Shown in pieces: positions 26,903 through 62,350 of a stretch of DNA of 64,000 nt. The translations under genes were made by a program, and so were the position numbers. The notes below the pieces were generated by a model. It was not told where the DNA came from, did no database searches, and saw only the letters and a list, made by a program, of their open reading frames with translations. Each line of letters starts with the position of its first letter. Within the stretch, counting starts at the first letter, position 1. Origin of the DNA: Candidatus Aenigmatarchaeota archaeon. GTDB taxonomy: Archaea; Aenigmatarchaeota; Aenigmatarchaeia; PWEA01. The stretch is taken from NCBI GenBank assembly GCA_046539325.1, contig JBKHHD010000003.1, positions 843 to 64,842 on the forward strand, written 5' to 3'.

Positions 26903-26994
26903 GGGCCGGTAGTGTAGCCTGGACTATCATTCCAGCCCGGGGAAGTCACTCCGGAACGCTGGCAACCCGTGTTCAAATCACGGCCGGCCCACCA
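26903..26994 (+). tRNA. tRNA-Pro (anticodon GGG) with a ~14-nt intron at 37/38. CCA encoded
   Basis: Acceptor GGGCCGG/CCGGCCC. T-arm CCGTG-TTCAAAT-CACGG. Anticodon stem CCAGC/GCTGG. Loop CCGGGG[intron AAGTCACTCCGGAA]C. Body nearly identical to tRNA-Pro(TGG) at 41709. Confidence 0.6.
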
Positions 26995-27971: not shown

Positions 27972-28300
27972 AGACTTAAATTTCTTTTTGGAGCCACATT
28001 CAAAGTAACTTTTCTAGGGGCTGACGAGATTACTGATAAACCCAAAGGACATTGGGAAAAACAGCAATTCACCTCGCTTAAAGTATCCTTCAGATCAACT
28101 TTGTGATGACCCCAACCTTTTAACTTACAGGCACCTATCAATGTTTACAGGGCCTGTGGTCTAACGGCAATACGGAACCGTGTTCTGATTTACGGTTCCT
28201 ACCGGAATGACATCGCCCTCGCAAGGAAACCCTTTAGAAAAGTGTTTCCATTTCCAAATAAAAACGAGAGAGGCGAAGACTCCGGGTTCAAAGGAAGGAA

Positions 28301-28849
28301 GTGAAACTTCCATCGCTTCCTTCGGAAACTCCCGGCAGGTCCATTTGTGGTACATTGGATGAAAAAGATGTACTTGAAACGGTGAAGCAGTTCGAGAAGA
28401 AGCTTCCAAAGTTCGAAGACGGAAGGATCGACTACCACGGCTCGGACACGGCGCCGGTACTAACTGTATTTGTGAAGCGCGGTGACAGGATCCTGCTTAT
28501 GAAGAGGAGCGACGAGGTGAGAACGTACAAAGGAAGGTGGAACACCGTCGCAGGCTACCTGGACGAGGTCCGACCGCTCCGCGAAAAGGTTCTGGAAGAA
28601 CTTGGGGAGGAAGTATCGATAACGGAGGAGAACATATCTTCGATCCGGTTCGGCGAACCTCTCAGGTTTACGGATGCGGACATAGACAAGACCTGGATAT
28701 CCCATCCTGTACTGGTAACCGTAAAGGAAGGGACGGAAGTAAAAACGGACTGGGAGCATACGGAGTACAGGTGGATAAAACCCGAAGAGCTGCAAGACTA
28801 CGACACCGTTCCGAAGCTCGAAGAAGGTCTGGAAAGAGTTCTCTCCTGA
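28301..28849 (+). CDS. NUDIX hydrolase
   Basis: Nudix box GRWNTVAGYLDEVRPLREKVLEELGEE. The start is uncertain because a strong hairpin spans 28272-28345. Confidence 0.7.
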   Translation: MKLPSLPSETPGRSICGTLDEKDVLETVKQFEKKLPKFEDGRIDYHGSDTAPVLTVFVKRGDRILLMKRSDEVRTYKGRWNTVAGYLDEVRPLREKVLEELGEEVSITEENISSIRFGEPLRFTDADIDKTWISHPVLVTVKEGTEVKTDWEHTEYRWIKPEELQDYDTVPKLEEGLERVLS

Positions 28850-31003: not shown

Positions 31004-31297
31004 ATGACAGAATACAAACTAAGGTTAGCTGTCTCCCTGGAAATACTGGAGAGGATTACTCCGTATAGAGATAGGGGTTTCTCAGGAAACATTCAAACAA
31101 AGGAAGAGTTTATGAAGAACTGCAGGATACCCGACCAAAGTGTTATTATAGACAATTTTAGGAGGCAAGCCGCTGCTTCCGACAGTGAAAAAAAGAGTAA
31201 AAACTACCGAGAAATGATTGAGCAAGTCCAGGAAATAGACAACGAAGATTGGGTTGATGTAGTTTACTCTATAGCCAATGGTGACTACGAGCTATAA
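31004..31297 (+). CDS. Hypothetical small protein
   Basis: 97-aa ORF with ATG. No recognisable motif. Confidence 0.35.
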   Translation: MTEYKLRLAVSLEILERITPYRDRGFSGNIQTKEEFMKNCRIPDQSVIIDNFRRQAAASDSEKKSKNYREMIEQVQEIDNEDWVDVVYSIANGDYEL

Positions 31298-31341: not shown

Positions 31342-31349
31342 TTTAAATA
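31342..31349 (+). promoter_or_regulatory. TATA box for tRNA-Ile
   Basis: TTTAAATA lies 27 nt upstream of the tRNA 5' end at 31377. A second A/T box TTATTTAAAA sits just upstream. Confidence 0.45.
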
Positions 31350-31376: not shown

Positions 31377-31500
31377 GGGACGGTGGCTTAGCCTGGTTAG
31401 ACGCCGGAAAGGAAATTTCCGTTTTTTGCCGCTTCCGGTGGGCAAAAGCGCCACGCTGATAACGTGGAAGTCGCCGGTTCGAATCCGGCCCGTCCCACCA
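31377..31500 (+). tRNA. tRNA-Ile (anticodon GAT) with a ~47-nt non-canonical intron in the D-loop. CCA encoded
   Basis: Acceptor GGGACGG/CCGTCCC. D-stem GCTT...AAGC restored only after removing ~31401-31447. Anticodon arm CCACG-CTGATAA-CGTGG. T-arm GCCGG-TTCGAAT-CCGGC. Confidence 0.65.
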
Positions 31501-31544: not shown

Positions 31545-31674
31545 GCCGGCGTGGCCTAGTGGTTAAGGCGCTGCGCTCATAAACAATAATTTATGAGCTT
31601 TGATCCGCTGACGCGGAGATGAAAAATTTTGCGGTGCAACGCAGAGAGCGAGGGTTCGACCCCCTCCGCCGGCA
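31545..31674 (+). tRNA. tRNA with CAT anticodon (elongator Met or Ile2) with a 57-nt intron at 37/38. No encoded CCA
   Basis: Acceptor GCCGGCG/CGCCGGC. D-arm GCCT-AGTGGTTA-AGGC. Anticodon stem CTGCG/CGCAG. Loop CTCATA[intron]A, where intron TTATGAG pairs with loop CTCATAA. T-arm GAGGG-TTCGACC-CCCTC. TATA TTTTATAG 29 nt upstream. Confidence 0.65.
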
Positions 31675-59576: not shown

Positions 59577-59661
59577 GCGGGGGTACCCAAGTGGCCGAAG
59601 GGGCAGCGTTGAGGGCGCTGTGCACGTAGGTGCTTCGTCGGTTCGAATCCGGCCCCCCGCA
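59577..59661 (+). tRNA. tRNA-Leu (anticodon GAG). No encoded CCA
   Basis: Acceptor GCGGGGG/CCCCCGC. 3-bp D-stem CCC/GGG. Anticodon arm CAGCG-TTGAGGG-CGCTG. Long variable arm GCAC-GTAG-GTGC. T-arm GTCGG-TTCGAAT-CCGGC. Confidence 0.85.
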
Positions 59662-59705: not shown

Positions 59706-59849
59706 TGGTCCCCCGACCGTGATTTGAACACGGGGCCTGTCGGTATCGGCAGAGGCGCTAATCCAAGGCACCAAATCAAAATACCGAAGAGTTATCATCT
59801 CCGGTGCCCGTCTACAGCCGACCGCTCTGCCAGCCTGAGCTATCGGGGG
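59706..59849 (-). tRNA. tRNA-Tyr (anticodon GTA) with a ~67-nt intron at 37/38. CCA encoded
   Basis: Minus-strand read. Acceptor CCCCCGA/TCGGGGG, so a C1:G72 pair. D-arm GCTC-AGGCTGGCA-GAGC. Anticodon stem GTCGG/CCGAC. Loop CTGTAG[intron]A. T-arm CCGTG-TTCAAAT-CACGG. Confidence 0.75.
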
Positions 59850-59929: not shown

Positions 59930-60364
59930 ATGGAGAAAAGGTTTGAGATCATAGAGGATGAGGCAACTGCAGATATAGCCTACAGAGCTTATGGAGAGAC
60001 TCTGGAAGAGATGTACGAGAGCGCGGCCCTCGGTCTCTTCGACATAATAACCGACATCGAGGACGTAAATACACTACAAACAGACCTGATAACAGTTTCA
60101 GCCGAGGACCGAGAAGCTCTGTTGCTGGACTTCCTAAATGAGCTCCTGTACAGATGGGACGTGGACAAGGTCCTGTTTTCGAAATTCTCCTGTGATCTTC
60201 AAACAAAGGACGGGAGTTTGGAACTCTCCGCGAACTGCGAAGGGGAGAAGTTCGACGCCGAAAGACATGAAAACAGAGTCGAGGTCAAGGCAGTCACCTA
60301 CTTCGGGATGGAGATCCAAGAAGAAGAGGGAGTTTGGACCGGAAAGATAACCATCGACGTCTGA
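59930..60364 (+). CDS. Archease (RtcB activator)
   Basis: FEIIEDEATADIAYRAYGETLEE...VKAVTYFGMEIQEEEGVWTGKITIDV. Confidence 0.85.
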   Translation: MEKRFEIIEDEATADIAYRAYGETLEEMYESAALGLFDIITDIEDVNTLQTDLITVSAEDREALLLDFLNELLYRWDVDKVLFSKFSCDLQTKDGSLELSANCEGEKFDAERHENRVEVKAVTYFGMEIQEEEGVWTGKITIDV

Positions 60365-60417
60365 CTGTCGGAAGAATTTAAATATCCCCATTCAACTAAT
60401 AGTACGGGGTGGCTTAA

Positions 60418-60900
60418 TTGAAGACCTACATGACTATCTACTTTAACTCGGACGGAAAGAGACCTTCTGATGTAGTCAAAAAGCTCGAGGACCTTGGTTT
60501 CGAGCTCAACAGAGGAGACTACGATTTCATATATGACTGGGATGAAGAGACCTCTCTGGACCACATAATGAGCCTCGGTGACAACATAAAGGAACTTCTG
60601 AAAGGAGACAAGGTTCTCTTCGAAATAAAGACAAGTGAAGGCGAAGAGGAGGAAGAAGAGGGGGAGATGAGGACCTATATGAAGCTTGTCTTCAGCGCCG
60701 AAGAAGGAAAATCTCCTACCGATACAGACGACATCATTGCTGACCTTGTCGATATAGGCTTCGAGCCCATAAAGGGAAGTTACGATTACGTTTACAGATG
60801 GCCAGAATCCGTAGACGTCGACGCAATACTTGAAGTAGCTGACAGGGTTTACGATTCTCTCAGGGGCTGCGGCGTGTACTTCAAGCTGAAGACCGTGTAG
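60418..60900 (+). CDS. Uncharacterised acidic protein made of two tandem ~75-aa repeats. TTG start
   Basis: Repeat 1 MKTYMTIYFNSDGKRPSDVVKKLEDLGFELNRGDYDFIYDWDEE. Repeat 2 MRTYMKLVFSAEEGKSPTDTDDIIADLVDIGFEPIKGSYDYVYRWPES. GGGGTGG RBS upstream of the TTG. Lies between archease and rtcB. Confidence 0.55.
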   Translation: MKTYMTIYFNSDGKRPSDVVKKLEDLGFELNRGDYDFIYDWDEETSLDHIMSLGDNIKELLKGDKVLFEIKTSEGEEEEEEGEMRTYMKLVFSAEEGKSPTDTDDIIADLVDIGFEPIKGSYDYVYRWPESVDVDAILEVADRVYDSLRGCGVYFKLKTV

Positions 60901-60916
60901 TTCTGAAGGTGAAAGT

Positions 60917-62350
60917 ATGGTAGATCTAAATAAGATAAACAAAAACACATGGGAAATTCCCAAGGAAGATGGAATGAACGTCCCTGGAAGAGTATACGCT
61001 TCCGAGGAACTTCTTCAGCAGATAAAGGAGGATAAAACTCTCGAGCAGATAAAGAACGTTGCCCATCTTCCTGGTATTTACAATTACTCTATAGCAATGC
61101 CTGACGCCCATCAGGGCTACGGATTCCCTATAGGAGGTGTAGCGGCCTTGGACGTGGGAGAAGGCGGAATAAGTCCTGGGGGTGTCGGCTACGATATCAA
61201 CTGCGGCATTCGCCTGGTAAAAACTCCGCTGAAGGTTGATGATGTAAGAAATAGGCTCAAGGAACTCATAAACGTACTTTTCCAAAGAGTTCCTTCGGGC
61301 GTCGGAAAGAGTTCTACAATTTCTCTTGACAAGAACGACCTCGAAGACGTTATAGAAAACGGTGCAAAATGGGCCGTTGAAAACGGATACGGCATTAAAG
61401 AAGACCTGAAAAATCTGGAAGAGAACGGGAGGATGAAAGAAGCTGATGCCTCCGAGGTCTCGGATAAGGCTATGAACCGTGGAAAGGAACAGGTAGGATG
61501 TCTTGGCGCAGGAAACCATTTTCTTGAGGTGGAGAAGGTAGGAAATATAGATAATGAAAAAGTTGCGAAGGAGTTTGGCATGGAAGAAGATCAGGTGTGT
61601 GTCATGATCCACACCGGTTCAAGAGGTTTCGGCCACCAGGTCTGCACAGATTATCTTCGCGAAACCGAAAAGAAGTACAAGAACGTAGTTCGTAATCTCC
61701 CCGACAAAGAGCTTGTATACGCTCCAGGGGGTTCAAGGATGGCGGAGAGGTACTTCAAGGCGATGAGCTGTGCCGTGAACTTCGCCTTCGCAAACAGACA
61801 GGTAATAATGCATCAGGTAAGGAAAGCCTTCCAGGAAGTCTTCGAACTGGATTACGAGGATCTGGAGCTTGTGTACGGCGTCTGCCACAACGTCGCCAAA
61901 AAGGAAGAGCATGAAGTAAACGGAGAAAGTAAAGAAGTATACGTACATAGAAAGGGCGCGACCCGTGCCTTCCCACCAGGTCACAAAAAGGTGCCGGAAA
62001 ACTACAGGAACGTAGGACAACCCGTTCTCATCCCCGGGAATATGGGTGAAGGAAGCTATCTGCTCCGAGGAACTGAAAAATCTATGGACCTGTCCTTTGG
62101 AACTGCACCACACGGCTCAGGAAGGATCATGTCCCGAACAAAGGCAAAGGGAGAGTTCTGGGGCGAAACCGTGGCCAAAGATCTGAAGAAGAAAAAGGAC
62201 ATACTAGTCAAGGCGGCATCAATGCCTGTCGTCGCCGAGGAAGCTCCAGGAGCATACAAGAACCTCAAGGAGGTCGTAGAAGCTTCACATGATTTAGGCG
62301 TGGCAGAGAAGGTTTTGAAACTGGATCCTATGGGTGTCATAAAGGGCTGA
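60917..62350 (+). CDS. rtcB: RNA-splicing ligase RtcB
   Basis: GGVGYDINCGIRLV, GAGNHFLEV, HTGSRGFGHQV, NVGQPVLIPGNMG, APHGSGR. Confidence 0.93.
   Translation: MVDLNKINKNTWEIPKEDGMNVPGRVYASEELLQQIKEDKTLEQIKNVAHLPGIYNYSIAMPDAHQGYGFPIGGVAALDVGEGGISPGGVGYDINCGIRLVKTPLKVDDVRNRLKELINVLFQRVPSGVGKSSTISLDKNDLEDVIENGAKWAVENGYGIKEDLKNLEENGRMKEADASEVSDKAMNRGKEQVGCLGAGNHFLEVEKVGNIDNEKVAKEFGMEEDQVCVMIHTGSRGFGHQVCTDYLRETEKKYKNVVRNLPDKELVYAPGGSRMAERYFKAMSCAVNFAFANRQVIMHQVRKAFQEVFELDYEDLELVYGVCHNVAKKEEHEVNGESKEVYVHRKGATRAFPPGHKKVPENYRNVGQPVLIPGNMGEGSYLLRGTEKSMDLSFGTAPHGSGRIMSRTKAKGEFWGETVAKDLKKKKDILVKAASMPVVAEEAPGAYKNLKEVVEASHDLGVAEKVLKLDPMGVIKG

Follow-up and report, generated by a model that had tools for sequence, protein, structure and literature searches.

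A probable protein-spliced intron in the D-stem of an Aenigmatarchaeota tRNA-Ile(GAU) gene

The tRNA-Ile(GAU) gene that lies within the 64,000-nucleotide stretch of Aenigmatarchaeota DNA analysed here (the window) is interrupted, which raises the question of where the extra sequence begins and ends, and whether the gene gives rise to a spliced, functional tRNA. The window is archaeal, encoding aCPSF1 and archaeal-type ProRS and ValRS, and its closest syntenic contigs are Aenigmatarchaeota metagenome-assembled genomes (MAGs) and metagenome contigs from soda-lake sediment. All parts of a cloverleaf can be read from the window sequence in the order GGGACGG UG GCUU AGCCUGGUUAG[46 nt]AGC G CCACG CUGAUAA CGUGG AAGUC GCCGG UUCGAAU CCGGC CCGUCCC A CCA. 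The acceptor stem (GGGACGG/CCGUCCC, 7 bp, followed by discriminator A), the anticodon arm (CCACG-CUGAUAA-CGUGG, 5 bp) and the T arm (GCCGG-UUCGAAU-CCGGC, 5 bp) are perfect and the anticodon is GAU, as described in an earlier reading made from the sequence alone (the sequence-only reading). The 5′ exon contains the acceptor 5′ strand, U8 G9, the D-stem 5′ strand GCUU, the D-loop AGCCUGGUUA and G22; the 3′ exon contains A23 G24 C25, G26, the anticodon arm with GAU, the variable loop, the T arm, the acceptor 3′ strand and the discriminator A. The acceptor 5′ strand is separated from the T-stem by 96 nt; the window's tRNA-Pro(UGG), which is uninterrupted, has 50 nt here, and tRNA-Ile thus carries 46 nt of extra sequence. 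The TATA-box-like element upstream of the gene is a putative archaeal promoter, and a AAAATTTAAATA block occurs at an equal distance upstream of the intron-bearing orthologues in contigs L041, L044 and L056. ARAGORN, one of the checks that had been proposed, did not call tRNA-Ile(GAU) with or without its intron option. The Rfam tRNA model matched no more than part of the gene (31431-31489, model positions 10-63, 32.3 bits), in an intron-free fold that takes a second GCUU inside the insert as the D-stem strand. This fold was rejected, as no acceptor strand adjoins it, and so the canonical intronless structure that had been named as the alternative to an interrupted gene amounts to a partial match from which the acceptor stem is absent.

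The exact boundaries of the insert were provided by orthologous genes. A pattern derived from the tRNA's 3′ half was scanned over one genome per species, yielding 31 loci; adenylosuccinate lyase, used as a query for syntenic loci in genome contigs, found no relative. Aenigmatarchaeota MAG contigs L008 and L018 contain an uninterrupted tRNA-Ile(GAU) whose 75 nt equal the window flanks exactly, and which scores 71.3 bits over the full length of the Rfam tRNA model. The exons are 75/75 identical in the intronless genes of L008/L052-54 and L018/L039/L046, where Ham1 (61-69% amino-acid identity) lies immediately upstream, and 74/75 identical in those of L035/L038/L049/L051, where tRNA-Ala takes the place of Ham1. 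Genes for a nitroreductase and ThiF are also found near tRNA-Ile in L018 and L052. Because the exons of the intronless relatives are otherwise identical, the insert comprises the 46 nt at 31401-31446 (Table 1); its removal leaves a sequence that is the same as the L008/L018 tRNA (71.3 bits) and restores the standard cloverleaf. An A is repeated at both junctions, such that removal of 31402-31447 gives an equal product, and the geometry of the bulge-helix-bulge (BHB) motif described below favours 31401-31446. The mature D-arm is GCUU-AGCCUGGUUA-GAGC, with a U13·G22 wobble pair and a 3′ strand composed of G22 from the 5′ exon followed by A23 G24 C25, and the intron is therefore located in the 3′ strand of the D-stem and not strictly in the D-loop. 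The proposal of a D-loop intron of ∼47 nt in tRNA-Ile(GAT) was thus correct with respect to an interruption at a non-canonical site, but the intronless orthologues set its length at 46 nt and its position at 22/23, within the D-stem 3′ strand. They also replace the AAGC that had been suggested as the D-stem partner with GAGC. The boundaries drawn in the sequence-only reading (local positions 24-69, GACGCC...GGGCAA) are displaced by 1 nt at each junction, and permit only one of the four central pairs of the splicing motif, compared with three of four at the corrected sites.

Table 1. Features of the tRNA-Ile(GAU) locus, other genes of the window and related inserts. Positions refer to the window unless a contig handle (L number) is given; a slash within a bulge marks the predicted cut.
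Feature	Position	Strand	Remarks
TATA-box-like element TTTAAATA	31342-31349	+	28-35 nt 5′ of tRNA start; read from sequence
tRNA-Ile(GAU) gene	31377-31500	+	
5′ exon, tRNA positions 1-22	31377-31400	+	identical to first 24 nt of intronless L008, L018
Intron ACGCCGGAAAGGAAAUUUCCGUUUUUUGCCGCUUCCGGUGGGCAAA, 46 nt, between tRNA positions 22 and 23	31401-31446	+	absent from intronless orthologues
3′ exon, tRNA positions 23-73	31447-31497	+	identical to intronless orthologues
Genome-encoded CCA	31498-31500	+	read from sequence
Central helix H, 5′ strand, G18 G19 U20 U20a	31395-31398	+	pairs with 31441-31444
5′ bulge A21 G22 / A (intron nt 1)	31399-31401	+	predicted cut 31400/31401
Inner helix h′, 5′ strand CGCCGGAA	31402-31409	+	8 contiguous pairs with 31433-31440
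Terminator-like hairpin CGGAAAGGAAAUUUCCG then U6, inside intron	31405-31427	+	terminator scan
Inner helix h′, 3′ strand UUCCGGUG	31433-31440	+	pairs with 31402-31409
Central helix H, 3′ strand, GGCA	31441-31444	+	3/4 pairs; A31444 opposite G18 is a mismatch
3′ bulge A A / A23	31445-31447	+	predicted cut 31446/31447
tRNA-Pro(GGG)	26903-26994	+	
tRNA-Pro(GGG) intron at 37/38, 14 nt, strict hBHBh′	26943-26956	+	ARAGORN places it at 41/42
tRNA-Ala(CGC), G3·U70 pair, three introns	28150-28343	+	missed by ARAGORN and Rfam
tRNA-Ala D-loop intron, 38 nt	∼28168-28205	+	boundary ambiguous by 3 nt
tRNA-Ala 37/38 intron, 47 nt	28224-28270	+	strict 4/4 central helix
tRNA-Ala 59/60 T-loop intron, 37 nt	28293-28329	+	11-bp inner helix
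tRNA-Met(CAU)	31545-31674	+	
tRNA-Met intron at 37/38, 57 nt	31582-31638	+	central helix 2/4
tRNA-Tyr(GUA)	59706-59849	-	
tRNA-Tyr intron, 67 nt	59745-59811	-	3/4 central pairs
Archease gene (RtcB activator)	59930-60364	+	PF01951 on identical gene in L064, same organism
RtcB tRNA-splicing ligase gene	60917-62350	+	Pfam PF01139, 566 bits, full length
L055 tRNA-Ile insert			20 nt
L057/58/59 tRNA-Ile insert			20 nt
L044 tRNA-Ile insert			41 nt
L056 tRNA-Ile insert			44 nt
Window tRNA-Ile insert			46 nt
L041 tRNA-Ile insert			53 nt
Recurrent intron family, L044	1492-1532		
Recurrent intron family, L008	2029-2105		
Recurrent intron family, L041	1557-1609		
Recurrent intron family, L035	13628-13663		
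Recurrent intron family, L052 tRNA-Pro(GGG)			

Short inserts such as this could in principle be an artefact of assembly, given that the source is a metagenome-assembled genome, or could represent a group I/II intron or the trace of a split or permuted tRNA. However, the identical 46 nt recur in L001, which is an independent Logan assembly of this organism, and data from JGI, ENA, NCBI and Logan contain related inserts. The organism is present in metagenome runs SRR19844286/87. With its 46 nt the insert falls far below the hundreds of nucleotides of a self-splicing group I/II intron, and no Rfam family besides tRNA matches at E≤1, while the exons are contiguous, collinear and both on the + strand, contrary to a split or permuted gene. 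These explanations are effectively refuted.

The intron flanks were examined with the standard BHB geometry, where a run of 4 helix nt on each strand leads into a 3-nt bulge and the cut falls behind the second nt of the bulge. Within the window this geometry recovers a strict motif at 37/38 of tRNA-Pro(GGG), with helix CCGG/CCGG and bulges GG/A and AA/C, as well as a strict BHB for the canonical intron of tRNA-Ala; in the tRNA-Ala T-loop intron it gives three of four central pairs and an 11-bp inner helix. In tRNA-Ile the central helix has three of four pairs, two of which are G·U, and one G·A mismatch. The inner helix is continuous, and at least 8 such pairs arose with a probability of 0.0006 in 200,000 shuffles of the window intron. 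The outer helix is reduced to a single U·G pair. Strict hBHBh′ motifs consist of two 3-nt bulges, a 4-bp centre and both outer and inner helices, a combination that the window copy lacks, whereas it displays the relaxed form in which an AG/A bulge is flanked by the central helix on one side and an 8-bp inner helix on the other. The motif is thus classed as relaxed HBh′, in view of the G·A mismatch and the near absence of the outer helix. From the inner helix and the 5′ bulge, the second site is expected at the symmetric position, and this coincides exactly with the 3′ junction required by the orthologues. Neither an exhaustive scan nor a search by eye revealed a strict BHB at a junction of the window copy compatible with a tRNA, and the HBh′ motif was recognized only once the orthologues had fixed the boundaries. 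The manual BHB folding that had been recommended as a check thus returned, at the corrected boundaries, a relaxed motif with the pairing described above. Of the two hairpins originally noted, CCGGAA/UUCCGG is real and forms part of the 8-bp helix 31402-31409/31433-31440, while GGAAA/UUUCC belongs to a competing fold outside the best-supported splicing structure. Folding energy does not support the motif, since the unconstrained minimum-energy fold of the region differs from the BHB, and the D-arm with its intron is not more stable than shuffled sequences (z=−0.55). The terminator-like sites in the intron region, among them the hairpin listed in Table 1, are not more numerous than in shuffles. 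The T6 run (window 31422-31427) is in the apical region of the intron, and the L056 intron, which is unrelated, also has a T6 in its loop.

A variant of this model, in which the same intron is cut in a register shifted by 1 nt at each site (after 31401 and before 31446, with 44 nt removed), would yield a 77-nt tRNA with a GCUU/AAGC D-stem and a 12-nt D-loop, AGCCUGGUUAGA. In the window it retains three of four central pairs and an inner helix of 7 bp; it reaches 4/4 pairs in L044 and would provide a Watson-Crick U13-A22 pair. Against this, the shift breaks the closing pair of the inner helix (C26-G64, local numbering), and leaves no outer pair. In the scan for alternative registers, which covered the window, L044 and L041, it passes the thresholds for L044 and fails them for L041. 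Its product would also differ in both length and sequence from the tRNA of the intronless relatives, and the shifted register is regarded as improbable.

The motif at 31401-31446 is conserved over six unrelated intron bodies. Further orthologues came from scanning metagenomes with the 5′ exon and from looking up the contigs of Ham1 homologues. With these, six different inserts are seen at exactly position 22/23 of tRNA-Ile in separate metagenome datasets (Table 1). Their bodies are mutually unalignable, with the exception of the two 20-nt introns and of L041/L044, which have a common 3′ end and hairpin layout. The bulges AG/A and AA/A are present in all six variants. GGUU forms 4/4 pairs with GGCC or GACC in five variants, compared with 3/4 for the GGCA of the window, whose central helix is the weakest among these variants. 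An inner helix is likewise found in every variant, although its pairs change on both strands between them (C-G, A-U, G-C). The 20-nt introns are minimal, comprising one bulge nt, a 4-bp hairpin, a 4-nt helix strand and two bulge nt. At the boundaries set by the orthologues, the observed central and inner helices arose together in shuffled introns with a probability of 1.4×10−4 for the window intron, 8×10−4 for L044 and 6.5×10−3 for L041 (200,000 shuffles each). Together with the intronless alleles, the six variants form a compact comparative dataset for one site, which shows what the cognate endonuclease would be expected to need: conservation is limited to the bulges and the 4-bp helix, and all else is free.

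The same loci bear on whether the gene is functional. Across the variants the exons show no difference or a single base change in the T-loop, while identity between the adjacent Ham1 proteins is no more than 62-72%; the constancy of the exons against the divergence of the neighbouring proteins argues for selection on the tRNA-Ile gene. The CCA terminus is encoded in 6/6 intron-bearing variants and in 0/3 intronless alleles, which read CCCAUC... at this point. The alternative of a pseudogene, or of a gene that a small insertion has inactivated, with a functional tRNA-Ile(GAU) elsewhere in the genome, would explain why standard tRNA finders fail on the locus, and is also in keeping with the imperfect motif of the window copy and the T6 run inside the insert. 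It is, however, difficult to reconcile with exons that are 100% identical to functional-looking orthologues despite diverged flanking proteins, with six lineages that keep an insert at the same nucleotide and with the same bulge and helix geometry, or with the conservation of the promoter-like element. The insert also has no second copy in the window and hence is not a repeated mobile element. In addition, DPANN genomes are small and usually contain single copies of tRNA genes. A pseudogene is thus very unlikely; indeed the intron variants, the constant exons, the CCA pattern and the L001 copy argue strongly against both a pseudogene and an artefact. A neighbour-joining tree of Ham1 is star-like and cannot separate one gain of the intron from several losses. 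A 97-amino acid open reading frame (ORF; 31004-31297, + strand) separates Ham1 from tRNA-Ile in the window as well as in L044 and L056, but is absent from L008, L018, L055 and L057, where Ham1 directly precedes the tRNA. The ORF belongs to no Pfam family and its sole database match is itself. As it is missing from some intron-bearing loci (L055 and L057), it is not linked to the intron.

The locus is thus very probably a functional tRNA-Ile(GAU) gene with a 46-nt BHB intron at G22/A23 that is cut by the splicing endonuclease EndA and ligated by RtcB. Transcription would start from the conserved TATA-like element at 31342-31349. The D-arm would be unable to form in the precursor, with G18 G19 U20 U20a paired instead to the GGCA at the 3′ end of the intron, and the intron flanks would adopt the 8-bp helix. 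This would place the 5′ site in the bulge A21 G22/A and present the 3′ site, A A/A23, four base pairs away on the opposite strand. EndA, presumably encoded outside the window, would cut at 31400/31401 and 31446/31447, and the exons would then be joined by RtcB with archease. The D-stem GCUU/GAGC is predicted to form after ligation, the product being a 75-nt tRNA plus the encoded CCA, the same as the tRNA of the intronless relatives. We infer transcription and the function of the product, and cleavage and ligation are modelled on the established archaeal pathway (PMC4090602, PMC3239211, PMC5829648).

Genes for the ligation step are present in the window. The RtcB gene product matches its Pfam family over the full length, its matches to the NCBIfam RtcB families are all below the curated cut-offs, and an archease gene lies in the same cluster. 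We infer that this RtcB joins the exons, with archease as its partner. The cluster (59930-62350, + strand), which contains archease, a 160-amino acid ORF and RtcB, is directly downstream of tRNA-Leu(GAG) (59577-59661) and tRNA-Tyr. The 160-amino acid ORF (60418-60900) consists of two ∼70-amino acid repeats with a poly-Glu linker; it has no Pfam match on record and is not EndA-like. The statement in the sequence-only reading that the window has no endonuclease gene agrees with our searches, as a motif regular expression and phmmer run against all ORFs identified no EndA in the window or in the loci of relatives examined. The phmmer query was a Methanocaldococcus jannaschii EndA sequence that matches the whole chain of PDB 1a79 with 371 bits, and the EndA of an unrelated contig, L013, was detected as a positive control. 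EndA was not found in the 10 kb past the window end either, and a large protein database contained no EndA match attributable to the Aenigmatarchaeota lineage of the window. The interrupted tRNA-Ile nevertheless implies that the lineage would possess a splicing endonuclease of broad specificity.

Interruption of tRNA genes is not confined to tRNA-Ile. The window contains seven tRNA genes, five of which are interrupted by a total of seven introns; only tRNA-Pro(UGG) and tRNA-Leu(GAG) are uninterrupted. The boundaries of the three tRNA-Ala introns were fixed through L044, which is without the D-loop intron, and L008, which has the canonical intron only. The D-loop intron of tRNA-Ala forms at most two of four central pairs in any register that gives an L044-like mature sequence. 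In tRNA-Met the core of the intron is kept in seven orthologues as UAUGAGC-N-UUGAUYC, a hairpin and then GRAGAUGA, and looks like half of a C/D-box (C′/D′) guide. An antisense element, AUGAGC, pairs with GCUCAU of the anticodon loop, and the fifth-nucleotide rule points to C34, which suggests that the intron may guide 2′-O-methylation of this wobble base. The intron of tRNA-Tyr, like that of tRNA-Met, contains GAGAUGA and UUUGAU, here within a GCACC/GGUGC stem, and these motifs may represent a K-turn or C/D-like element. The mature anticodon loop of tRNA-Pro(GGG) would be CCGGGGC, with C33 in place of the near-universal U; C33 is kept in the orthologues of L035/L038/L051 and L052.

These genes have a practical consequence. 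An essential tRNA gene is called by neither ARAGORN nor Rfam and the neighbouring three-intron tRNA-Ala is missed entirely. Because tRNA-Ile and tRNA-Ala escape the finders, automated annotation of the lineage gives an incomplete tRNA set.

Comparison of the relatives suggests that introns move between tRNA genes and between positions. One intron family, GAAACUUUU-loop-AAAAGUUUCAUCAAAA, recurs at different tRNA positions in different relatives, namely tRNA-Ile 22/23, tRNA-Ala 37/38 and 59/60, and the D-loop of tRNA-Pro(GGG) (Table 1). The L044 tRNA-Ile intron and the L008 tRNA-Ala 37/38 intron have identical stretches of 22 nt and 14 nt, a 36-nt stretch of the L041 tRNA-Ile intron shows 89% identity with the tRNA-Ala 59/60 intron of L035, and the D-loop intron of tRNA-Pro(GGG) in L052 has the same motif as the L044/L041 family. 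The window intron matches only itself and L001, with no other copy in the window or in the loci of relatives examined, and none in viral contigs. As it has no detectable relative, transposition is proposed for the lineage and not for the window copy. That tRNA introns are actively mobile in this Aenigmatarchaeota clade is a tentative proposal, which we consider possible but on balance doubtful. If this recurrence, and the presence of six unrelated bodies next to intronless alleles at the one 22/23 site of tRNA-Ile, reflect recent insertion or replacement, and not fast drift, the relatives would provide natural before-and-after snapshots of the intron sites of the lineage, and the mechanism by which archaeal BHB introns transpose could become testable outside hyperthermophiles.

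With respect to known systems, non-canonical BHB introns have been described in Crenarchaeota and Nanoarchaeota (Marck & Grosjean 2003; Sugahara et al. 2008; reviewed in PMC4090602), and the view in the sequence-only reading that such positions are documented in archaea is borne out for this site, as 22/23 is among those catalogued (PMC4090602). The HBh′ and hBH variants of the motif have been reported for non-canonical introns (PMC4090602; HBh′ also in PMC3239211). The tRNA-Ile intron resembles those of Crenarchaeota and Nanoarchaeota in being of the protein-spliced type, in lying outside 37/38 at a listed position and in its HBh′/hBH type of site. It differs in its host, an uncultured DPANN archaeon (Aenigmatarchaeota) associated with halo- or alkaliphiles, and not a hyperthermophilic crenarchaeon; a literature search found no paper on tRNA introns in Aenigmatarchaeota. 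Similarities are also evident with the introns at 20b/21 of Methanopyrus kandleri pre-tRNA-Glu(UUC) and in the D-loop of Aeropyrum pernix pre-tRNA-Thr, where an HBh′ motif in the D-region blocks formation of the D-arm and tertiary folding until it is spliced. Such D-loop HBh′ introns are cut in vitro by broad-specificity endonucleases, which are needed for efficient cleavage (PMC5829648, PMC3241643). In contrast to these examples, the window intron is displaced by two nucleotides in the 3′ direction and falls within the D-stem strand.

Elevated disruption of tRNA genes has been reported for DPANN lineages (PMC5829648, PMC3239211). The window has in common with ARMAN-2 (Micrarchaeota, DPANN; PMC3239211) many interrupted tRNAs, relaxed motifs and several introns per gene, whereas the non-canonical introns reported from ARMAN-2 are in the T-loop (53/54 and 59/60) and not at 22/23. 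The EndA of ARMAN-2 is of the epsilon2 type (PMC3239211), while other DPANN have alpha4 EndAs with an L3 loop (PMC5829648). The near-identical introns at different positions of different tRNAs in the relatives are reminiscent of intron transposition in Thermoproteales (Fujishima et al. 2010, as summarized in PMC4090602), although, unlike that system, the tRNA-Ile intron of the window itself has no detectable relative. Current understanding is not overturned by the tRNA-Ile intron. Both the kind of D-arm intron and its position are already documented, and it is a well-supported but ordinary example, which extends the known 22/23 introns and relaxed HBh′ motifs to Aenigmatarchaeota of soda-lake and hypersaline samples.
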